Source of the DNA: a bacterium | Lineage (GTDB): Bacteria > JALSQH01 | Length of the DNA stretch: 37,796 nt | Assembly (NCBI GenBank): GCA_026985515.1 | Contig: JALSQH010000128.1 | Location: 1-37,796 of the forward strand | Direction of reading: 5' to 3' | Part shown: positions 20,482 through 37,796 of the stretch, in pieces | Layout: each line of letters opens with the position of its first letter | Numbering within the stretch: the stretch's first letter is position 1 | Position numbers and translations under genes: made by a program | Notes under the pieces: generated by a model | Database searches by the model: none | Told to the model about the DNA's origin: nothing | What the model saw: the letters and a program-made list of their open reading frames with translations, nothing else

Positions 20482-21363
20482 TTATAACCCATAATAATTT
20501 AAAACCCTAGGAAAAAGATTTAGAAGCTTATAATTGAACACCCAATCCATTTCATACATACTCCTCAATAGTGGATCTTTCATTTTTTTCCACGCAGGAC
20601 CATCGGTAACCCATACAAAAACAATACCATGTTGCTTGGCAACCCTATCCATCTCTAAATAACTTTCAGCAATCGAAATAGGTTTACTACCAGTAACATT
20701 ATAAAAATTGCATTCGATAACAAACCGGGGATAATCTTTAAAATAAATAACTATGTCATGGACTTTCCCTCTCCCTTTACCAATGATAGGATACAGAGAA
20801 AATTGTGGATCATGTTTCACAATTCTTAATTTACTTCCAACCATCTTGCTCAACTTATTCAGACACATTTCTTCAAAAATATTTCCGCTACGGGATTTTC
20901 GGGTGTTTGTATCAATACCTACTTCGACGCCTAAAAGATAATCATGCAAGTCCTTAATTTTATCAAACAAATCTAATATACCAGTTTCCTTACAAAAAAA
21001 TGTAATTTTTTCAATATCGTTGGGGCTAATTTTCTTCTCATCGAACTCAAAAGTAACAAATTCTTCCAACGAAGGATCAAAAATATCAATTATTCCATTT
21101 TTGGCTCTTTCTGCTATTAAAAGAGGAATCACTTTAACAACTTTTGGATATTGCTTCAATAAAAAAAACAAGTGTTTCTCTCTATCTTTTATTCGCACAA
21201 GCGAATTTAAAATCGCTAACTCCGTCGCATAATTTGCTACTTTATTTGCCACTTTATCCCAATCCACAAAGTATTCAAAAGTCTTATTTGTTACAAGAAG
21301 CTTATTAAAAAAATCTTCTACATAAGAATTAAGTGTAGGATAACCAATTTTATCAAATAACAT
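20482..21363 (-). CDS. Type II restriction endonuclease, DpnII/MboI family (predicted GATC)
   Basis: 293 aa. Blocks YPKVVKVIPLLIAER, GVEVGIDTNTRKSRSGNIFEE, VIECNFYNVTGSKPISIAESY and VWVTDGPAW correspond to the conserved blocks of R.DpnII as I remember it. AT-rich relative to its neighbours. Its start overlaps the methyltransferase gene by 11 nt. Confidence 0.75.
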   Translation of the reverse strand: MLFDKIGYPTLNSYVEDFFNKLLVTNKTFEYFVDWDKVANKVANYATELAILNSLVRIKDREKHLFFLLKQYPKVVKVIPLLIAERAKNGIIDIFDPSLEEFVTFEFDEKKISPNDIEKITFFCKETGILDLFDKIKDLHDYLLGVEVGIDTNTRKSRSGNIFEEMCLNKLSKMVGSKLRIVKHDPQFSLYPIIGKGRGKVHDIVIYFKDYPRFVIECNFYNVTGSKPISIAESYLEMDRVAKQHGIVFVWVTDGPAWKKMKDPLLRSMYEMDWVFNYKLLNLFPRVLNYYGL

Positions 21364-22294
21364 TATTCTCCCACCATTTTACACTAAACTTGTATTTTCT
21401 AAAATCCTTATCATCAATAGGCTTTCGGAAAACAAAAATATGTTCATGTGAAATTAAATAAAAATCATACTTTCTACCTCTCCATTTTTCTCTTGTTGCT
21501 TTCATATTCCACTGGAGCTTTATTATGTCTTCTTGAAGAATAAACCCGACATCCAAGAAAACTTGTAATACCCGAAATGCGATAGGTACATAATGCTTAA
21601 ATTTTCTGGTATCTCCAATTAAAATGGCACATATTTTCCCAGGCTTTAAAACCCTAAAAGACTCTTGTGCAACATCCTTCATTCCCTTTAAGTAATCATT
21701 GAAAGACAAATAGGAAAGATCACCAATCATATTTTTTTTCTTTGAATAAGTAATTATGTTCGCATAGGGAGGATGAGTGAGAATTAGGTCTATACTTTCA
21801 TTTTTTATTTTATCCAGCTTTCTCGCATCACCCCAAAAAGTTTTAATAATAGGTTCCTTATACTCAGGGAGAAGAGGATTGTAATAAAAATCAAGCCTGT
21901 TCCTTGCAAGCATCACAGCTTCATAGTTAACATCAACTCCTATGGCATTCCTTTCAAGCAACTTTGCTTCCACTAGTGTAGTTCCACTCCCCATCATTTG
22001 ATCCAATACCCAGTCACCCTTATTAGAATATTTAAGCATTAAATTTCTAGGTATATAGGGGGACCAATTACCTCTATAATTACCTTTATGAGTTGCCCAA
22101 CTACCTCTATCCGGGAAACTCCACACAGTGGTATTTTCTAGCTTATAGTCAGATGGTGGAGAAAAGGTTTTTATATTCCAGTTCTTCTCCAATTTTATTT
22201 TTACTCCTCCAATAGTTACAAACTCGTTTTTCATAAGAAATTTCTTGTAATCTTCTTCCGTTATCTCTATCATTTCTCTTACATTTTTTTCCAT
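21353..22294 (-). CDS. DNA methyltransferase (N6-adenine/N4-cytosine class), presumed cognate of the DpnII-like nuclease
   Basis: 313 aa. SAM-binding motif I VLDQMMGSGTT, then ~60 aa later the catalytic motif IV as DLILTHPPYANI. AAGGAG SD lies 16 nt after the pyrB stop. Target specificity (GATC) is inferred only from the partner nuclease. Confidence 0.72.
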   Translation of the reverse strand: MEKNVREMIEITEEDYKKFLMKNEFVTIGGVKIKLEKNWNIKTFSPPSDYKLENTTVWSFPDRGSWATHKGNYRGNWSPYIPRNLMLKYSNKGDWVLDQMMGSGTTLVEAKLLERNAIGVDVNYEAVMLARNRLDFYYNPLLPEYKEPIIKTFWGDARKLDKIKNESIDLILTHPPYANIITYSKKKNMIGDLSYLSFNDYLKGMKDVAQESFRVLKPGKICAILIGDTRKFKHYVPIAFRVLQVFLDVGFILQEDIIKLQWNMKATREKWRGRKYDFYLISHEHIFVFRKPIDDKDFRKYKFSVKWWENNVI

Positions 22295-23838: not shown

Positions 23839-23864
23839 AAAGAGGGAAACTACCTGTTCTCCTC
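23837..23864 (-). terminator. Rho-independent-type terminator straddling the stop codon of the distal multihaem cytochrome gene
   Basis: RNA: GAGGAGAAC (23864-23856), loop AGGUA, GUUUCCCUC (23850-23842), then UUUUU (23841-23837). This is a 9-bp stem with one A.C mismatch. The TAG stop lies at the loop/stem boundary. Confidence 0.45.
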
Positions 23865-25622
23865 CAGTTTATAAACTTTCCATCGCCAGTATTTGTAGCT
23901 TTTGTCGGGATAGAGCAGGATTCTTTTCTCCTTTTTCCCCAATCCCCTCTCTCCATCTTTGTAAAATCCCTTTAACTCAAAGAGGGGATAGAGATCCCAG
24001 GAGGTCAGGCCACCATTTACTCTGTACCTTCTCACACCCATTCCGGCGGTTTTGGGATTCTGGTGACACGATTCACAGCTTCTTCCCCGTAGAGTTACTG
24101 TGTGTGGAGAGTAAACTGCGAAGTAATTTGAAAGCATTTTGCCCGTTACCATGTCTCCATATGAAATGTAAAACTGAAATTCGGGTCTTGCGGGATAGAA
24201 TTTTCCCTTTCTCTCATCGTAACCCAGAGGGGGGTTTTCCCATCTTCTCATCATATATCCATTAAACCAGACGCCGGGGAGTTTTCTCCCTGTGATCCAG
24301 TCAACTCCCATCGTTGCTGGTGGAGGGAAATTGAAACCTTTATCACGCATGTAGAGGAAGAAAAACTGTTTCAACACCCATGGATCTCCCTGAACAAAAT
24401 AATCCTTCCAGTACTCCCAGTCCGGGACGTCCTCCCTGACAAGGTTCCAGCCATAATCCTGCTCCCCCCAGGCAGAGTGACAGGCAACGCAGGAGAGTTT
24501 CTCGTGCCCGGGAATTCTGTGGTAGAGGAGTTTTCTGCTGTACAGTTTCAGAGGGAAAATCTTTCCGGTGACATGAGACTTGAAGAAGTATTTACCCCCC
24601 CTTTTGAACATCCCTCTGTGCCAGAATTCTCCCCCTCCGTGACAGCTCATGCATGATACTTTTACAGCTTCCCTCTTCCATTTCACAGATCTCCCATTCC
24701 CCATGATCTCATTCCTGGTGTGGCAATCGGTACAGTGGAGACCTTTATGAAAATGAATATCGGGAACAAGGTGCAGGTAATCCATTCCATAGATTCCCTC
24801 AATACTTTTCTGATGGGCAAGATCAGCTCTGTATCTCAAATGATAATCACGCGGGTAGAGACCCGAATACTCTCCACCAACAAAATGTCCATGGTGACAG
24901 TGCATGCAGGTGGCAGATGGGATTCTATCTGAAAACTGATGGTAAAGTGGATATCCCCTTTTCCCCTTTAAACTTTTATCCCCTCCCCTGTAAACACCAT
25001 CATTTGCGTAGATAATATGACACGCAGAACATCCCTTTCCCCTCATGAATCCATCAACATCTGGAGGTTTTGAGGAGATATGGCAGATAGCACACTTTCC
25101 CCTGATAAGGGAAATAGCAAGGGCGGTCATATCTTCAGGGTAACTCTCCGGTTCTGGAAGTTTTCTGAAATGTGGAGAGGGGAGGGCAGAATAATTCTCC
25201 CTTTTCCCCGTCAATTGATAGAGAGTTGAATTTATAACCCCTGCAAAGGTGTAGTGGGGAGAAGTTCTCAGATTTTCTATATCCCTCTGATGGCAAACTG
25301 CACATCTTTTCCAGTTATCTGGAGCACCCGGATCAGGAATCAGGTTTCTGTGAGCTTCTTTAAAATTAGATGATTCTGGGTTGCCCCCGTGACACTTAAC
25401 ACAGGAAAAATTATGGTTTTTATCAATTACTTCTATGCCTCTGTGACACTTCACACAATTACCATATTTCTTAACATCGTATTTAACGGCAGGATTCTTT
25501 ACAATTTTAAAATGCTCCATTCCCAGCTCTCTATACCTCCCCAGATGAAAGAGTGGTACAAAATCATATCCAAGGAGAAGCAAAGCAGAGAATCCAGCTA
25601 TGAAAATGATAATTTTCTTCAT
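23850..25622 (-). CDS. Membrane-anchored multihaem c-type cytochrome, 10 CxxCH motifs (MHC-B)
   Basis: Ten CxxCH motifs: CVKCH x2, CAVCH, CAICH, CSACH, CMHCH, CTDCH, CMSCH, CVACH, CESCH. N-terminal hydrophobic helix MKKIIIFIAGFSALLLLGY. I prefer the ATG at 25620-25622 (MKKIII...) over the track start at 25640, because it forms an ATGA overlap with the upstream stop and follows GGGAGG. Paralogous to the upstream cytochrome. Confidence 0.85.
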   Translation of the reverse strand: MKKIIIFIAGFSALLLLGYDFVPLFHLGRYRELGMEHFKIVKNPAVKYDVKKYGNCVKCHRGIEVIDKNHNFSCVKCHGGNPESSNFKEAHRNLIPDPGAPDNWKRCAVCHQRDIENLRTSPHYTFAGVINSTLYQLTGKRENYSALPSPHFRKLPEPESYPEDMTALAISLIRGKCAICHISSKPPDVDGFMRGKGCSACHIIYANDGVYRGGDKSLKGKRGYPLYHQFSDRIPSATCMHCHHGHFVGGEYSGLYPRDYHLRYRADLAHQKSIEGIYGMDYLHLVPDIHFHKGLHCTDCHTRNEIMGNGRSVKWKREAVKVSCMSCHGGGEFWHRGMFKRGGKYFFKSHVTGKIFPLKLYSRKLLYHRIPGHEKLSCVACHSAWGEQDYGWNLVREDVPDWEYWKDYFVQGDPWVLKQFFFLYMRDKGFNFPPPATMGVDWITGRKLPGVWFNGYMMRRWENPPLGYDERKGKFYPARPEFQFYISYGDMVTGKMLSNYFAVYSPHTVTLRGRSCESCHQNPKTAGMGVRRYRVNGGLTSWDLYPLFELKGFYKDGERGLGKKEKRILLYPDKSYKYWRWKVYKLEENR

Positions 25623-27430
25623 TTTCCTCCCGCGGGACATCTATCGGGATGTGTCTTGAAATAACGGTAACTTTTTTCAAAATCTCTGTAAATTGGATCG
25701 GTGTAGCTATTGTGGCAGATAACACATTCCCCTGCTCTTTTTATCCTCATCAGTTCCCGTCTGTTAAAGGGTCTTGCACCAGTTCTTGAGAACTTTTGAA
25801 GTGGTTCTCCATCCCCCGACTCAACCCTGTAAAGGGCATACCTGTAACCCCATCTCACAGGTATCTGAATATCCTTCTCCCCATTGCCAAGACCCAGCCT
25901 GTATGGATTAAGGTGGCATTGAGCACATGTTGGTACTTCCCTTCTGGTGGTGTGGGGATCAAAAGCAGCCATACCCAGATGTCGATTCAACTGATGGAAA
26001 ACACCATCAGTGGTTTTGAGTGAAAACATAACCTGACATCCGGGAGTCAGAGGTCTTACCTTTCCATCTGCTCCCACGCCCAGGGGAGGTGTTTCAAATC
26101 TGTAAAAATCTGCCTTTTCACTCCACCTGCCCGGTGTCTTTTTCATGGTTAGCTTGTCATACTGACTCTTGCCAAGATCAAGCTTATCATGGCAACCGTA
26201 ACACTGGGGAGCCCATGCCGCATGGCAGGCACTGCAGGCAAGTTTCTCATGCCCCCTAAAAGTGTGATAAGGTGTGCCGGTAATGATCTTGATCTGCATC
26301 ATTTTTCCATCTTTTTTTCTGAAGTAGATCCACTTCCCGTTCCTGTACTGAAGATTGTAAATCTCCGTTCCTCTCTTTGTTACTGCCACATAATCACCTG
26401 TTCTCAAGGGCACTTTTCCATTTTCTCTGGCAAGTTTAATAGCCATTGAATCAGAGGTGACCTTTTTCTTATCAGGTGGTTTTTCGCCGCTTCCGTGACA
26501 ATCCTGACAGCTTATGTCGATCTGCTCCTCCATGTGGTAGTGCAACATTCCGTCTCCCATTGTACCCCTGAATGTGTGACAGTCGATGCATGTGAGACCC
26601 TTCTCAAAATGGATGTCAGGCAGAAGCCTCTGCCAGCCACGCTTTGAGGAGAGAAGGTCAGATCTCTGCAAACCATGAAAATAGGGGGTTCTGTAGTTGT
26701 CATCTTCATAAATTCCCTGATAAGAGAGGGCTGTCCTGGCACTTCTGTTGTGGCAGAGTTGACACCGTTTAACGGGAATCTTTGTTGTAAAAGATGGATG
26801 CCCCTTTTTTGCCTCATAGTGACAATCCATACATCCCCCACCCCTTTTGCCAATCTCGCCTCTGAAGTCCCCCTTTCTCTTATTTATATGGCATGTGGCG
26901 CAGAATTTACGGAACTGCCTTTCGGGATAATTTTTATTTCCAACTTTTCTGCACCATCTCACACCATCAGAGATGCTGTCAATTCCAATACAGCTACTGG
27001 GGGAAGAAGTAACACCCCACTGATACAGCAGACCTGAGATTATTCCGGTATTTGTTTCCATAATTGACCTCTTTACCTCCCTCACCCTCTCCGCATGACA
27101 GCCGCTTCTCCCGCAACTCTTCTCTGCATACTCAAGCCTTGCAGGATTCTCAACCACACCTGTGTGTGCTATTTTTTTATTTAAACTTTCCCCTATGCCT
27201 CCATGACAGATGGTGCAGCCAAAATTTTTAACGGGATGGGACTTATCAACATCAACATTCCTGTGACAGGTTACACAGTATTCCTTCTCTCCGTTGAGGT
27301 TAACAACATAGATGGGTTTCTCTGAAAATCTTCTCCACTCCTCCCTTTCTCTGAAAATATATACCGAAACAAACAGAGCAACGATGAAGATCAGTGAATA
27401 TATCCACTTTTTCAAATTGTCAATCTCCAT
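25619..27430 (-). CDS. Membrane-anchored multihaem c-type cytochrome, 11 CxxCH + 1 CxxxxCH motifs (MHC-A)
   Basis: 603 aa. Motifs CVTCH, CTICH, CGRSGCH (27095-27115), CATCH, CMDCH, CQLCH, CIDCH, CQDCH, CSACH, CYGCH, CAQCH, CVICH. N-terminal TM helix WIYSLIFIVALFVSVYIF. GAGGA SD upstream. Overlaps the cytochrome b gene by 19 nt. Confidence 0.85.
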   Translation of the reverse strand: MEIDNLKKWIYSLIFIVALFVSVYIFREREEWRRFSEKPIYVVNLNGEKEYCVTCHRNVDVDKSHPVKNFGCTICHGGIGESLNKKIAHTGVVENPARLEYAEKSCGRSGCHAERVREVKRSIMETNTGIISGLLYQWGVTSSPSSCIGIDSISDGVRWCRKVGNKNYPERQFRKFCATCHINKRKGDFRGEIGKRGGGCMDCHYEAKKGHPSFTTKIPVKRCQLCHNRSARTALSYQGIYEDDNYRTPYFHGLQRSDLLSSKRGWQRLLPDIHFEKGLTCIDCHTFRGTMGDGMLHYHMEEQIDISCQDCHGSGEKPPDKKKVTSDSMAIKLARENGKVPLRTGDYVAVTKRGTEIYNLQYRNGKWIYFRKKDGKMMQIKIITGTPYHTFRGHEKLACSACHAAWAPQCYGCHDKLDLGKSQYDKLTMKKTPGRWSEKADFYRFETPPLGVGADGKVRPLTPGCQVMFSLKTTDGVFHQLNRHLGMAAFDPHTTRREVPTCAQCHLNPYRLGLGNGEKDIQIPVRWGYRYALYRVESGDGEPLQKFSRTGARPFNRRELMRIKRAGECVICHNSYTDPIYRDFEKSYRYFKTHPDRCPAGGK

Positions 27431-28284
27431 CCAGGTCCTCTGAAAAAGTAAGCCTCAATGGTGAGAAGTGCATAAGTTAGAATGAGGAAAATCAGAACAA
27501 TCCGGAGAATATTCTTTCCCCTCTCCCCTGCAAAGGGAAAGATGAGCCAGAGAAGGAAGAAAACCAGCGGAATAACAATCCCGCCCCAGAAGGGGGGAAG
27601 CAGATAAACAAGTTCCTGAATACCAAGAAAAAACCAGGGGCCTTTTATGGGATCAATCTTCAGCGTGTGGGAAAGGGGTGGTGCCAGGCCGGGATAGATG
27701 GTGAAAAGGACAGGCAAAATATTTGCGATGACAAATTTCTCAACCGTTACATACCTCTGCCATCTGATATGACTGTAGATGAATATGAGGAGGAATATGG
27801 GGAGAATTATAACATGAAAAAAATAGAAGGTCACCGGGGCTTTTGAGTTGAAAAGAAAATCTGAAAGAAAACCCCCTATAACGGGGATCTTACCCGCAAT
27901 CTGAGAAGCGATCCTGCCCGCAAAAAATCCCTCAATGTCAAACCTCAAAACATATCCGCTGAAACCCTCAAAGACAATGATGTAGAACAAAAGCAGGCCA
28001 ACAAACCAGTATTCCAGTGAAACTTCTACCTCATACTTCTTCAAAAAATACTTCCAGGCGTGAAGAGCGAGGAAAACGAGGGAGAGATTTGACGAGTAGT
28101 AGTGAAGGCTTCTGAGCAGATATCCATAGGCATAAATGGAGTGGATAGCCACAACTGATTTATATGGTTTGCTTAAATCATAATTGAAAAGAAGGGCAAT
28201 TCCAGTTACAAAGGAGAGAATCAGAGTGGAGAGTGCAAGCTCACCCCAGGTGGGGGGATTCATATCCTTAAACTTTATAACCAC
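27412..28284 (-). CDS. Cytochrome b (b6-like dihaem core fused to a subunit IV-like C-terminal segment)
   Basis: 290 aa polytopic protein. His61/His75 (RSLHYYSSNLSLVFLALH, spacing 14) and His157/His172 (FHVIILPIFLLIFIYSH, spacing 15) reproduce the b6-type bis-His ligand pattern. FSGYVLRFD aligns to the GYxLPW block. GPWFFLGIQE aligns to the PEWY Qo motif region. The start is uncertain: GTG at 28284 or ATG at 28263, and neither has a good SD. Confidence 0.8.
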   Translation of the reverse strand: MVIKFKDMNPPTWGELALSTLILSFVTGIALLFNYDLSKPYKSVVAIHSIYAYGYLLRSLHYYSSNLSLVFLALHAWKYFLKKYEVEVSLEYWFVGLLLFYIIVFEGFSGYVLRFDIEGFFAGRIASQIAGKIPVIGGFLSDFLFNSKAPVTFYFFHVIILPIFLLIFIYSHIRWQRYVTVEKFVIANILPVLFTIYPGLAPPLSHTLKIDPIKGPWFFLGIQELVYLLPPFWGGIVIPLVFFLLWLIFPFAGERGKNILRIVLIFLILTYALLTIEAYFFRGPGWRLTI

Positions 28285-28335
28285 AATTTTATGTTACTGA
28301 AAGGAAGAAGGTAAGGCAAGGGGACGCTACATTTT

Positions 28336-28779
28336 TCAATCCACCTTCACCCTCTGGGAAAATGGAGCAGGTCTGTCTGGGAAAATGATCAATTTATCAC
28401 CTGATTTTTTAATCAACAGCGCCTCAAGATGTCTCTTAGCAGGGCCGTGGACAACATCACCCTCCAGATCAAACTCGCTCCCGTGACATGGACAGTGAAA
28501 AAGTTTTCCGTTCCAGATGGGTTTGCAGCCCAGATGGGTGCATTTAGCCTTCAACGCAAATAATCCCTCTTCATCTCTGATGAGAAAAACCTTTCCCAGA
28601 TCCTTTACCTCTCCCATTTTCAAATGAGAATCGGATAAGTCATAAATGACCCGCTTGCTTTTAACCCGACCACTTTCAGCAAACTTTCCGGTTATATAAG
28701 CAGCAACTGCACCAAGAAAGGTAAATGGGTGAAACAGTTTTTTTAAAAACCTTCTCCTCTGTTCGCTGAAGTTCATCAC
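28336..28779 (-). CDS. Rieske [2Fe-2S] iron-sulfur protein with Tat signal
   Basis: 147 aa. Twin-arginine motif QRRRFLKK followed by a hydrophobic helix. Cluster-binding boxes CTHLGC and CPCHGS. The GTG (28777-28779) or the adjacent ATG (28774-28776) overlaps the hisD TGA (TGATG). Confidence 0.88.
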
Positions 28780-34706: not shown

Positions 34707-37700
34707 TTACGGAGTGGCAAATATTGTCAATTTGTAGGCAGTACCCATATTTCTCAAAGAGGGAAAGGATGGGTATCCAATGACATAGGCTCCGGCATCA
34801 TTATCATACACAAGAGAATCAAGTCTTACTAAACCATCACTGGCAAGGGCATTGTAGGCTACAGGCTGATCAAAAACCCAGCATCCCAGGTCTGGCATAA
34901 AAACTCCCATCTCAAGAGTTGCAGGTTCGCCGATATAAAAGACAAGATTACCATCCTCAGTTATCTGGGGAGGGGTCTCATCCACAGGATCTGAAACAGG
35001 ATCAAAGCATGGAGTAAGTTGAGAAGTACTACCGAGAGGAGCAGAATAGATACTTTTATCTTTAAAATATGTCACCTGTAACTGACCATTAACCATAGAG
35101 AATCTGCTTCCCCCTATATCACCGGAATCTACTCGTTTATAGCCTTTACCCACTGTGAATATATCAAGCTCAAAACTGGTACCTGCATCCCTTGTAAAGA
35201 GGATGTATGTATCATTATCCACTCTCACTATGTTCAGCCAATCAGATACAATATCTCCACCACTATAAATAGTACTACAGGTAAAATTAAAACTATTATC
35301 ATTACCCTCACAGTAGTGGAGATCGCTGGAATCATCCACATACGCTATAAAGAAATCTGTTACACCTGGTATAGATTCATCCGGTTTCATGAAAAGAGCT
35401 GCATTTATAACATTCACCTGACTGGTCTCAATATTCTCACCTGTGCTGTTGCCAGGAGCGAAAATATTAAAATAGTGATTCTGAGTTTCTCCAATGAAGT
35501 AGACCTTACCGTTTCTCGCCTCAGTATCAAAAACCACCACACTGTCACTACCTGTGGGGGTCGGGGTCACATTCTCATCATCAATCTGGGAAAGTACACC
35601 TTTATAGTTTCCACTGTCATCATAGCCGGTGGAGAGAAAATACCACTTATCACTCTGTTTAAAGAAATCAAATCTCTCTGTTGCCAAAGGTATCTGTAGC
35701 CAGTGATAATCTGCATCGGAAGATATGGGTGTTATGTTGAAAGTTGCAGAGGAATCATTGGCATTTCCATAATAAAGATCAAGTTCCCCATTCCATGCTG
35801 TCAGATAAAGCTTACCAGAATTATCGATTAAACCTGAAATCTGTCTTCTTCCCGGACATGGGAAATCCAGGGCTTTTGAAGCTGGATACTGATCTATTGT
35901 AACAGTAACTGGATTGGAAAAGGGTGAATAGATCTCATCTATCTCCCCAGCACTGCAATTATCGGAGAGATTTGTGTAGGTTAAGATAACAGGATTATTA
36001 TGTGAATCAAATGTAATATCGCTTTCATTGAGAAGGAGACCATCAAAGCTATATTCTGGACCAAATGAAACAACATTGCTGCTGGTATCATCCCCTCTGA
36101 ACTCAACAAGGTAGCCCCTTGTATCAGGTGGATTGGAAGTATCACCTGTGACCTTCTTATAATATATGTAAGTGTTGCCATCTCCAGCCACTCCAAAGCC
36201 TGTCATTCCCACATCACCACTATCAACAAGAGTGGAAGTCCATCCCTGTCCAGAATCATATGCCCAGTAAACCTCACCCTCATTACTGTCAAGATCGCCA
36301 AAGTAGAGAAGCACCTCGGCCCTTTCATGCGCAGAATTCCATTTAGCTTTCAAATCAATTATATGAAGTGAGGAATTGATCTGAAGCAACTGCTCATCAG
36401 ACCCTACTCTACCACTGCTATCCACAACTATCCTGTTTAAATAGAAATGCCCTGAAGAATCGAGAGAAGTGTAGAATATTTCAATACCTCTCCCATCATA
36501 ACAACTTCCCACAGCACGGAGAAGGATCTCGTTACTGTCGGGGTCAAATCTCTTTACCACAGCTGAGGCAGATCCTCCCGGTGACCATTTCACAAAATTT
36601 ATACCAGGATTCAGGTAGAGAGAAGGATACACCACGAAAATATTTGTTCCATCAGTTGTGACGGAAAATTCTGATACTGGATCATTAACTATATTGTATG
36701 AAGTTGAAGGATCATTCAGGTCAACAGCAAAAATTCCTCCTCTGCCCTGATATGAAGTGTAAAATGCAAAATAACCACCTGATGTTGAGACAAGTTTATT
36801 CTGATATCCTGAAATTCCCATACCTGCTTCACTTTCAAGAGTTAAACCTGCTTTCACAATCATTGCTGAAGCATAATTTGGAACTTCATCGTGACTATAA
36901 ATAGCATAATAGGTTACCACATCCCTTTCTGCCTGTGTGTCCCTTATGTGAAGCCAGTTACTGTTGGGAATCTGGTCGGGAGTTCCACTGACAACTCTGC
37001 CATCATCGTAGGATGAAGGTGGTGAACCCACTTTGGCAACTACTCTATATCCTGAAATATCATCAGTATTTGATGGTATTTTCCACACTATCTGATTTCC
37101 GGTTAAAGTCGGTACCCCTCTTGCCTCCACCACAGGGGCAGGAGGTACACTATCATGCGGGGTACCCTTAACTGTGGCACCACTGGAATAATTGGGCACC
37201 TCATCATAGGTGAAAAAGGTGTAACAGTATTCTTCATCATCAGTGAGACCCGTATCTTCAAAGTAAGCTGTTCCTTTTGTAAAATCACCAACCAGCGTTC
37301 CATTTGAATCATTAACCGATGCGGGACAGTAACTGTTATCCCCCCGCAAAACCTTAACTCCCTCATAATCAGAATCTGACGGTTCACTCCAGGAGATTTT
37401 AAGTGCATTTCCTTCTGGCACTACAGTAACATTCAGTCCGTACACTTCCCCGGGCGCCCGTGAATCGGAAGGAGTTGCACAGACAGTCTGTGATCCTGAT
37501 GAATAGTTTGGGACTTCGTCAAATGCAAAGATCCTGTAGCAATATGTTTCACCATCAGTCAGACCATCATCCTCAAACTCAGTGGTGTATGGATACACTG
37601 TGCCTAAATCCACCGCATTGGGATCATTAACTCCACCGGGGAGGTAATTATTATCGCCTCGCAATATTTTTACTCCTGCCAGATCAGTATCGGAAGGTTT

Positions 37701-37796
37701 GGTCCACACCAGTTTCAGAGCATTCCCCTCTGGTAATACATCTATGTGAAAATTGCTCACATTACCGGGAGGTACACTGTCTTGAGGTACTCCTAC
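34707..37796 (-). CDS. Giant surface protein: tandem Fn3-like modules followed by a ~700-aa beta-rich (propeller-like) region (partial; 5' end beyond the right window edge)
   Basis: The track start at 37760 is an in-frame GTG. The frame stays open to 37796 (VGVPQDSVPPGN-VSNFHIDVLPEGNALKLVW). That extra peptide matches the inter-repeat linker GTPHDSVPPAPV, so at least one more module lies upstream. Repeats contain the W-x-x-P-x-D-x-D-x-x-G-(V/Y)-K/R-(V/I)-x-R and Y-C-Y-x-x-F-x-x-D-E-V-P-N-Y-S-S pattern. Confidence 0.8.
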   Translation of the reverse strand, partial: VGVPQDSVPPGNVSNFHIDVLPEGNALKLVWTKPSDTDLAGVKILRGDNNYLPGGVNDPNAVDLGTVYPYTTEFEDDGLTDGETYCYRIFAFDEVPNYSSGSQTVCATPSDSRAPGEVYGLNVTVVPEGNALKISWSEPSDSDYEGVKVLRGDNSYCPASVNDSNGTLVGDFTKGTAYFEDTGLTDDEEYCYTFFTYDEVPNYSSGATVKGTPHDSVPPAPVVEARGVPTLTGNQIVWKIPSNTDDISGYRVVAKVGSPPSSYDDGRVVSGTPDQIPNSNWLHIRDTQAERDVVTYYAIYSHDEVPNYASAMIVKAGLTLESEAGMGISGYQNKLVSTSGGYFAFYTSYQGRGGIFAVDLNDPSTSYNIVNDPVSEFSVTTDGTNIFVVYPSLYLNPGINFVKWSPGGSASAVVKRFDPDSNEILLRAVGSCYDGRGIEIFYTSLDSSGHFYLNRIVVDSSGRVGSDEQLLQINSSLHIIDLKAKWNSAHERAEVLLYFGDLDSNEGEVYWAYDSGQGWTSTLVDSGDVGMTGFGVAGDGNTYIYYKKVTGDTSNPPDTRGYLVEFRGDDTSSNVVSFGPEYSFDGLLLNESDITFDSHNNPVILTYTNLSDNCSAGEIDEIYSPFSNPVTVTIDQYPASKALDFPCPGRRQISGLIDNSGKLYLTAWNGELDLYYGNANDSSATFNITPISSDADYHWLQIPLATERFDFFKQSDKWYFLSTGYDDSGNYKGVLSQIDDENVTPTPTGSDSVVVFDTEARNGKVYFIGETQNHYFNIFAPGNSTGENIETSQVNVINAALFMKPDESIPGVTDFFIAYVDDSSDLHYCEGNDNSFNFTCSTIYSGGDIVSDWLNIVRVDNDTYILFTRDAGTSFELDIFTVGKGYKRVDSGDIGGSRFSMVNGQLQVTYFKDKSIYSAPLGSTSQLTPCFDPVSDPVDETPPQITEDGNLVFYIGEPATLEMGVFMPDLGCWVFDQPVAYNALASDGLVRLDSLVYDNDAGAYVIGYPSFPSLRNMGTAYKLTIFATP
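36846..37796 (-). repeat. Diverged tandem coding repeats of ~315 nt (105 aa Fn3-like modules), 3 copies plus the end of a fourth
   Basis: PEGNALKLVW at residue 10 and PEGNALKISW at residue 115 (track numbering) give a 105-aa period. A third, more diverged copy is TLTGNQIVWKIP...YYAIYSHDEVPNYAS. Spot alignment of copies 1 and 2 at DNA level gave roughly 70-75 percent identity over a short hand-aligned stretch. Confidence 0.6.

Follow-up and report, generated by a model that had tools for sequence, protein, structure and literature searches.

Results

We analysed a 37,796-nt stretch of contig JALSQH010000128.1 (bacterial assembly GCA_026985515.1, GTDB lineage JALSQH01), hereafter the window, which carries a predicted electron-transfer module between positions 23850 and 28779. 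The module consists of four consecutive open reading frames (ORFs), all on the minus strand and all at the coordinates given in an earlier sequence-only reading of this DNA. They encode a Rieske [2Fe-2S] protein, a b6-like cytochrome b and two large multihaem c-type cytochromes (MHC-A and MHC-B), a set that belongs with the Cbc6/ExtMNOPQ genes of Geobacter. A lone, invariant cysteine of MHC-A, replaced in five related species by an in-frame UGA codon, provides a clue to what the family may do.

Organisation of the module

The Rieske gene (28336..28779, ExtO-like) encodes 147 residues and matches the Pfam Rieske model with an E-value of 1.2e-12. An alternative ATG start one codon downstream gives a 146-residue product and overlaps the hisD stop codon by 1 nt (GTGATG). 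The cytochrome b gene (27412..28284; Pfam Cytochrome_B, 1.6e-20) encodes 290 residues, with a b6-like part resembling ExtP and a subunit-IV-like part resembling ExtQ. Translation may instead begin at M8 (283 residues), the start used by the nearest relative and chosen in one gene call; the 51-nt gap to the Rieske gene described previously applies to the 290-residue start and becomes 72 nt with M8. MHC-A (25619..27430; 603 residues; NCBIfam ExtM, 3.5e-104) overlaps the cytochrome b gene by 19 nt, in agreement with the earlier reading, and is followed by its paralogue MHC-B (23850..25640; 596 residues, 10 CxxCH motifs). The ATGA overlap reported for the two cytochrome genes is found only if MHC-B starts at M7, the start of a 590-residue gene call, and the longest MHC-B ORF instead overlaps MHC-A by 22 nt.

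A CxxCH scan of the window found no gene for a c1- or f-type subunit or other c-type cytochrome, so the reported lack of a mono- or dihaem c1, f or c subunit holds for the whole window. The operon position of such a subunit is occupied by the two multihaem cytochromes, and the proposed anatomy of a Rieske/b6-like core with multihaem cytochromes in place of c1/f is correct. The one other same-strand ORF with the motif encodes ribosomal protein L31 (33947-34231, upstream of prfA), whose CSACH sequence would be miscounted as a haem site by a bare motif scan.

The Rieske protein and cytochrome b

The N-terminus of the Rieske protein carries a twin-arginine motif (RRRFLK, residues 8-13, 28741..28758, minus strand, read from the translation) followed by a hydrophobic anchor. 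The two cluster boxes, CTHLGC (residues 80-85) and CPCHGS (residues 96-101), and the E-F that follows lie within 28477..28542 on the same strand and make up the 'S-F' redox signature. The twin-arginine motif fits the suggestion that the protein is exported by the twin-arginine translocation (Tat) pathway. The twin-arginine motif is present in 11 of 13 Rieske proteins of the family and the S-F signature in all of them; under the rule linking this signature to redox class (PMC4122944), S-F proteins are predicted to be of mid-to-high potential. Matches in the PDB are to b6f and bc1 Rieske proteins, and b6f-type Rieske models are also matched. The best PDB relative is Kustd1480 of Kuenenia (9rk3), which shares the CPCHGS-x-F signature of the window protein and has a measured potential of +335 mV.

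Cytochrome b is matched by the NCBIfam models ExtP (3.4e-26, residues 14-173) and ExtQ (2.3e-4, residues 185-288), and among solved structures cytochromes b6 come closest to it (E 6e-18). The four axial histidines expected of a b6-type protein are all present when properly aligned: H61/H75 (spacing 14) and H157/H172 (spacing 15) correspond to H86, H100, H187 and H202 of 1vf5_A, which upholds the bis-His pattern described earlier, and no family member with the b6-like part lacks them. Hydropathy analysis indicates approximately seven hydrophobic segments, consistent with a four-helix b6-like part fused to a three-helix subunit-IV-like part, although the subunit-IV-like tail alone found no match in the PDB.

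The window protein contains no cysteine at all, and consequently no site for haem ci, the covalent attachment site of which we take to be the CLGG cysteine of b6. This cysteine is absent from the fused cytochromes b of the family, whereas the split ones, found in loci with the Geobacter order, keep the sequence F-C-L-G-G. At the Qo site, the family alignment places GPWF (residues 215-218; 27631..27642, minus strand) in the position of PEWY, leaving the motif with no acidic residue. Across the family the motif reads (G/A)PW(F/Y/I) and never contains Glu or Asp. GPWF is a recognised natural variant and not a sign that the Qo site has been lost.

The multihaem cytochromes

MHC-A contains eleven CxxCH motifs and one CxxxxCH motif (CGRSGCH, residues 106-112; 27095..27115, minus strand), and all twelve, the CxxxxCH motif included, are kept in 72 of 72 homologues. 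When the residues of each cytochrome were shuffled, CxxCH motifs averaged 0.03-0.05 and never exceeded 2. The two cytochromes are paralogues that align colinearly (29% identity across 537 columns, E 9e-47), each with one N-terminal hydrophobic helix, and MHC-B lacks the motifs found at residues 410 and 569 of MHC-A; the earlier description of two paralogues of about 600 residues, with 12 and 10 haem motifs and a single N-terminal helix, is therefore confirmed. The ten motifs of MHC-B are conserved among its relatives, apart from short forms in Campylobacterota from which the first two are missing. A word-indexed search with MHC-B returned only 16 relatives, and the loci fetched for MHC-A were used for this comparison instead.

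Against the NCBIfam ExtM model, MHC-A scores 349 bits over profile positions 14-586 of 599, below the equivalog cut-off of 800 bits. The best NCBIfam match of MHC-B is to the N-terminal half of ExtM (1.4e-55, 189 bits), followed by ExtN (9e-29, 100 bits, cut-off 200), where a score of about 100 bits covers only some 120 residues. The second cytochromes of related loci, including those with a Geobacter-like gene order, show the same pattern of scores. Neither cytochrome resembles a solved structure: a Foldseek comparison of both models with the PDB, one of the checks proposed earlier, gave no match with E < 1, and profile and sequence searches of the PDB returned matches at the level of haem motifs only. 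As a separate observation, the 416-position NCBIfam model NF040968 ('FeS_ExtO') matches multihaem cytochromes at nearly the scores and coordinates of the ExtN model (window 23850-27430, and related loci L023, L027 and L008), and matches neither the window Rieske protein nor that of L023. This model looks mislabelled, because published ExtO is a 14-kDa Rieske protein.

An invariant cysteine that alternates with UGA

Beyond the haem motifs, conservation in the ExtM family is confined to six His, two Met and a single lone Cys. The last of these, Cys465 of MHC-A (codon 26036..26038, minus strand), lies in an invariant P-G-C-Q motif, is Cys in 72 of 72 homologues and is absent from MHC-B; it is a candidate redox-active or haem-ligating residue. 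In genomes of five GTDB species, the codon aligned to window positions 26036-26038 is instead a single in-frame TGA (P-G-C/U-Q). The genes concerned are L059:5223-7142, L062:2218-4119, L069:4687-6516, L078:1848-3776 and L079:5861-7672, where L numbers denote the loci fetched for comparison.

Read through the TGA, the products keep all 12 haem motifs, including both motifs downstream of it. Substitutions at the first, second and third codon positions number 73:26:141 downstream of the TGA and 64:26:116 upstream, so that the third-position bias of coding sequence persists beyond this codon. The five genes probably encode selenocysteine-type ExtM cytochromes, to judge from these patterns. Alternation between Cys and UGA is the classic Cys/selenocysteine (Sec) pattern of redox-active residues, and its occurrence at Cys465 suggests that MHC-A may be catalytic and not merely a wire. 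The replacement of an invariant Cys by UGA also points to chalcogen redox chemistry. We found no report of selenocysteine-type ExtM cytochromes in the literature searched, and cytochromes are not mentioned in two surveys of bacterial selenoproteins.

An analogous alternation is seen in the MccSep/ExtKL proteins of Geobacter, another multihaem family with both Sec- and Cys-type members. Those proteins differ in being soluble, tetrameric and equipped with five haems; they have no detectable relation to MHC-A, and the window contains no such gene.

Distribution and gene arrangements

Relatives of MHC-A are numerous. A word-indexed search returned 1,981, and HMMER, run exhaustively against representatives at 50% identity, matched 232 clusters at E <= 1e-30 and, at the looser threshold of E <= 1e-3, 1,167. 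Using one genome per GTDB species, ExtM-like genes were found in the genomes of at least 593 species (593 of 600 matched sites confirmed). Among the matches listed are Calditrichota, Campylobacterota, many Desulfobacterota (cable bacteria included) and WOR-3, with WOR-3 metagenome-assembled genomes (MAGs) supplying, again among the matches listed, the nearest ExtM-like proteins in GTDB genomes, at 44%.

A survey of synteny, also proposed in the earlier reading, was carried out on the best 80 loci and shows that the window is not alone in its gene order. Rieske-cytochrome b-A-B recurs at nine loci, plus one with an interrupted cytochrome b call, from Caldithrix, Sulfurospirillum, Hippea, Campylobacteraceae and one deltaproteobacterial MAG. 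The Geobacter-like order, A-B-x-Rieske-cytochrome b with a split cytochrome b, was seen at 3-4 loci. The pair A-B stands without an adjacent core at 17 loci, and A stands alone at 40, often adjoining housekeeping genes. The nearest relative of the module (L083:4272-7370, from the same ENA study) has the order Rieske-cytochrome b-MHC-A and no MHC-B, with 56% identity in MHC-A and 52% in cytochrome b, from which it follows that the second cytochrome is either dispensable or recently acquired in this lineage.

A third arrangement was observed in Syntrophaceae/Desulfomonilales MAGs (L019, L038, L042, L052, L054 and L077). Here a stand-alone, three-helix ExtQ-like protein (KAPWIF) precedes an ExtM-like cytochrome of 700-785 residues; a gene for an FGE-sulfatase domain protein lies upstream, and no b6-like or Rieske gene is adjacent.

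Genomic context

The module is embedded in a co-directional string of housekeeping genes, with prfA, prmC, murA, hisG and hisD upstream and pyrR, pyrB, pyrC, carA and carB downstream, and there is no strong terminator between hisD and the Rieske gene. For the CarB protein of this string, relatives were found at 87%, 76% and 71% identity, and matches to named taxa level off at 68% (Desulfuromonadales). The right edge of the window lies 463 bp from the contig end; on the left, context was extended by 10 kb, which added housekeeping genes only.

The relatives that share the window's gene order have different surroundings. At 8 of the 10 loci, sulfur-related genes are found within 8 kb, encoding a Tat-exported PhsA/PsrA-like molybdoenzyme (533 bits to PhsA), an iron-sulfur subunit, an NrfD anchor, rhodaneses and/or YeeE/YedE-type membrane proteins. 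The idea that the module replaces the PsrC anchor of the adjoining Psr/Phs-like enzyme was considered and rejected, as NrfD-type anchors are present (c35, 2.4e-45; c24, 3.2e-20). The Geobacter ext cluster likewise encodes a rhodanese-like protein, ExtH (PMC5877670). Directly upstream of extM (GSU2935), that cluster encodes MccSep (ExtKL), a periplasmic, polysulfide-reducing selenoprotein that is essential for S0 respiration and for which the electron donor was not addressed. Desulfurella proteomics yielded nothing on these genes.

Several further features of these neighbourhoods were noted. In Campylobacterota and Calditrichota, proteins ending in ...GC are encoded directly upstream of the Rieske or ExtM-like gene and may represent sulfur-carrier tails. 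They include membrane-anchored proteins of about 120 residues with no Pfam match (L008, L010, L018 and L021, labelled c25 in our comparison; L026, L036 and L039, labelled c29), and several of the neighbouring rhodanese-like proteins end in ...EGC (L013:5705-6376).

Elsewhere in the window, a low-GC island (20482-22294; GC 0.36 compared with approximately 0.43-0.45) lies between pyrB and the dihydroorotase gene. It contains two partner ORFs, one of 313 residues bearing an HPPY methyltransferase-like motif and one of 293 residues, and has the appearance of a restriction-modification insertion interrupting the run of pyrimidine genes. At the contig end, a 1017-residue ORF (34707-37760) shows a faint fibronectin-III match, and the public collection holds no gene call with an identical product.

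Discussion

Taken together, the gene content and cofactor-binding residues of the module suggest a quinol:multihaem-cytochrome oxidoreductase of the Rieske/b6 type in the cytoplasmic membrane, which would deliver electrons to the periplasm and in which Cys465 would probably take part in chalcogen redox chemistry. We hold the chances that this is the right account to be a little better than even. A quinol, presumably menaquinol, would be oxidised at the Glu-less GPWF Qo site. The first electron would pass to the cluster of the Rieske protein, which is Tat-exported and anchored in the membrane, then to the haems of MHC-A in the place of c1/f, and on to MHC-B. The second would travel by way of haems bL and bH to reach a Qi site without haem ci, with the resulting Q cycle building proton-motive force. 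MHC-A is placed as the c1/f substitute because its gene overlaps that of cytochrome b by 19 nt and because it co-occurs with the Rieske protein and cytochrome b in L083, where MHC-B is absent. The electrons would end in the periplasm, where Cys465 probably either reduces a chalcogen compound of moderate-to-high potential or feeds a reductase of such a compound, the candidates being selenite or tellurite, tetrathionate and other sulfur species.

Thermodynamics narrows the range of likely acceptors. The reduction potential of polysulfide is approximately -260 mV, and a Rieske protein of +150 to +335 mV cannot drive its reduction, so that acceptors of higher potential are favoured over S0. More plausible direct acceptors are therefore selenite or tellurite, tetrathionate, Fe(III) and nitrite.

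Several points weigh against this account. Insertion of Sec at the UGA is deduced from the codon pattern: the hairpin predicted 8 nt beyond the UGA does not exceed shuffled sequences in stability (z = -0.33), and covariation on it is uninformative given how similar the five sequences are. No porin, outer-membrane cytochrome, sulfur, selenium or metal-respiration gene is present in the window or in the 10 kb beyond its left edge. As the module's own neighbours are all housekeeping genes, the connection with sulfur comes solely from relatives in other phyla. Both the assembly of the complex and its direction of electron flow are predictions for every member of the complex type. MHC-B is equivalent to ExtN in position only, with strict orthology unsupported, and the structure models are of moderate quality for MHC-A (predicted local distance difference test score, pLDDT, 71) and poor for MHC-B (pLDDT 57). 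Proteomic and transcript data from Geobacter tie ExtN and ExtQ (PMC5877670), and GSU2934, to Fe(III) oxide and Pd(II) reduction, which fits a role in metal respiration equally well. Finally, it has been suggested that a Qo motif without Glu is the mark of a complex working in reverse (PMC4122944).

The last two points correspond to the two halves of the hypothesis put forward in the sequence-only reading, a conduit for metal or mineral respiration or its reverse, which retains some support from Geobacter expression data but is not favoured by the comparative evidence. As an inner-membrane entry to extracellular electron transfer, the complex would pass quinol electrons along 22 haems to outer-membrane conduits and thence to Fe(III), Mn(IV) or electrodes. 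The Geobacter homologues do lie in the ext cluster with a porin-like protein, ExtI, and GSU2934 is up-regulated in Pd(II) and Fe(III) oxide reduction. In addition, Cbc6 is listed in the extracellular electron-transfer network as a putative quinol:cytochrome c oxidoreductase, and a mid-to-high-potential Rieske protein fits Fe(III) or Mn(IV) as acceptors on thermodynamic grounds. We nonetheless regard such a conduit as unlikely. Genes for a porin, an outer-membrane cytochrome or further cytochromes are lacking from the 37.8-kb window and 10 kb to its left; the same-order module is common in named taxa of sulfur-metabolising groups (Hippea, Desulfurella, Sulfurospirillum, Nitratifractor), where it adjoins Psr/Phs-like, rhodanese and YeeE genes; and a family-wide Cys/Sec residue is not expected of a pure wire. 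Reverse operation strikes us as less probable still. Here the donor would lie in the periplasm (a reduced sulfur compound, Fe(II) or a second cell), its electrons would enter by the cytochromes and the Rieske protein, and a Q cycle running backwards at the expense of proton-motive force would push them into the quinone pool. Low-potential sulfur donors can reduce quinone directly and need no uphill route through a Rieske protein, and a housekeeping operon suggests a main-line respiratory enzyme. The case for reversal draws on the Pro at the position of the PEWY Glu, since Kao and Hunte propose it for the APWY type and pair the APWY/GPWY clades with mid-to-high-potential Rieske proteins, although no member of these clades had been characterised (PMC4122944). 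It also draws on how widespread ExtM-like genes are among organisms that oxidise or disproportionate sulfur, cable bacteria and Desulfocapsa among them, but the ExtM-like gene of these last two is an orphan with no adjacent Rieske or cytochrome b gene.

The alternation of Cys and UGA raises another alternative, to which we attach a similarly small likelihood: the ExtM-like protein may be the catalytic subunit instead of a substitute for c1/f, giving a new kind of respiratory enzyme, a Rieske/b complex with its own terminal reductase. A Cys or, in some lineages, Sec beside a haem would then reduce a chalcogen compound, for instance tetrathionate, selenite or a sulfane-sulfur carrier. Were this correct, quinol oxidation, generation of proton-motive force by a Q cycle and reduction of the substrate would all take place in one complex, and the combination of a high-potential Rieske protein with a Glu-less Qo site would imply energetics unlike those of any studied bc complex. 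It appears very improbable that the complex supplies electrons to N-oxide reductases (Nap, or an octahaem enzyme that reduces nitrite or hydroxylamine), a role known for epsilonproteobacterial Qcr and suggested for the Rieske/cytochrome b that is linked to nap in Caldithrix abyssi. The C. abyssi genome paper proposes donation from Rieske/cytochrome b to multihaem NapM or epsilon-Hao, and the closest solved Rieske protein comes from an anammox complex bearing multihaem cytochromes. However, the ExtM-like loci of Caldithrix MAGs are flanked by psr-like, rhodanese and yeeE genes and not by nap, the window contains no nap, nrf or hao genes, and the weak, local matches of the MHC-A profile to NrfH and NrfA (E ~0.02-0.05) are at chance level and involve haem motifs only. 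Our preferred reading thus remains periplasmic delivery of quinol electrons by a forward-running complex, with Cys465 as a putative site of chalcogen chemistry.

The implications of the module are mainly comparative. The complex type to which it belongs is not a peculiarity of Geobacter, but extends across several phyla and exists in a second, compact gene arrangement that the window exemplifies. The Cys/UGA site and the sulfur-gene neighbourhoods of its relatives make the function of the family testable. What the window itself adds is a divergent member in a housekeeping context; its principal value lies in the second arrangement, the sulfur link and the Cys/UGA site that comparison with its relatives brings out.

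Comparison with known systems

The closest known system is that of Geobacter. Butler et al. (2010, PMC2825233) described a conserved "bc complex" cluster encoding the 12-haem GSU2935, the 10-haem GSU2934, the Rieske protein GSU2933 and the cytochrome b GSU2932, and termed the role of its multiple cytochromes novel. Few cytochrome clusters are conserved in all Geobacter genomes; this complex type is one of them, and in 2010 it was put forward as the quinol-oxidising site that was missing. Its genes were named ExtM, N, O, P, Q and S by Jahan et al. (2018, PMC5877670), while the Bond laboratory refers to the GSU2935-GSU2930 cluster as Cbc6/CbcMNOPQR. The statement in the sequence-only reading that the 12+10-haem pair belongs to no recognised family therefore no longer stands: the same set was described in Geobacter in 2010 and has since been named, and profile searches with Pfam (Rieske, Cytochrome_B) and NCBIfam (ExtM, ExtP, ExtQ) models match the window proteins. 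Its view of the pair as uncharacterised is sustained, as according to a 2026 review the Cbc3-6 complexes still have no known physiological role (PMC13591261) and no similar structure has been solved. What exists in Geobacter is accordingly a named complex, with a different gene order, and not a characterised one.

In both systems a Rieske protein and a b6-type cytochrome b, the latter with a subunit-IV-like partner, are accompanied by one 12-haem and one 10-haem cytochrome. The two systems differ in gene order, which is M-N-O-P-Q in Geobacter and O-P/Q-M-N (Rieske-b-M-N) in the window, and in the state of cytochrome b, where separate ExtP and ExtQ genes correspond to one fused protein of 290 residues. 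The window proteins all fall below the NCBIfam equivalog cut-offs (349 versus 800 bits, 92 versus 290 and 21 versus 150), and nothing near the module corresponds to the linked extHIJKL genes (rhodanese, porin and selenoprotein cytochrome) or extS.

More distant comparisons place the core within a wider group of Rieske/cytochrome b enzymes. With the b6f complex (PetB/PetD/PetC/PetA) it shares the 14/15 histidine spacing, the 4+3 helices and a Rieske protein that matches b6f-type models; in contrast, it lacks cytochrome f and the haem-ci cysteine, has GPWF and not PEWY, fuses b6 to subunit IV and includes two multihaem cytochromes. Kao and Hunte (2014, PMC4122944) defined a GPWY/GPWF clade of cytochrome b, paired with mid-to-high-potential Rieske proteins, whose members occur in delta-Proteobacteria, in Ignavibacteria and in Nitrospinae and include one of the two cytochromes b of Caldithrix. 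The window's GPWF and CPCHG-S-E-F would place it in this clade by motif alone; the classification covers cytochrome b only and does not describe ExtM/ExtN-type partners. The anammox complexes Kustd1480-1485 and Kuste4569-4574 are similar in design, with a b6-like cytochrome b, a subunit-IV-like protein and anchored hexa- or octahaem cytochromes that replace cytochrome f. Their NAD(P) oxidoreductase subunit and HAO-like octahaem protein are found neither in the window module nor among its neighbours, and their cytochromes are unrelated in sequence. Overall, the module is a divergent member of the Cbc6/ExtMNOPQ complex type, distinguished by its fused cytochrome b, and not a new kind of system.

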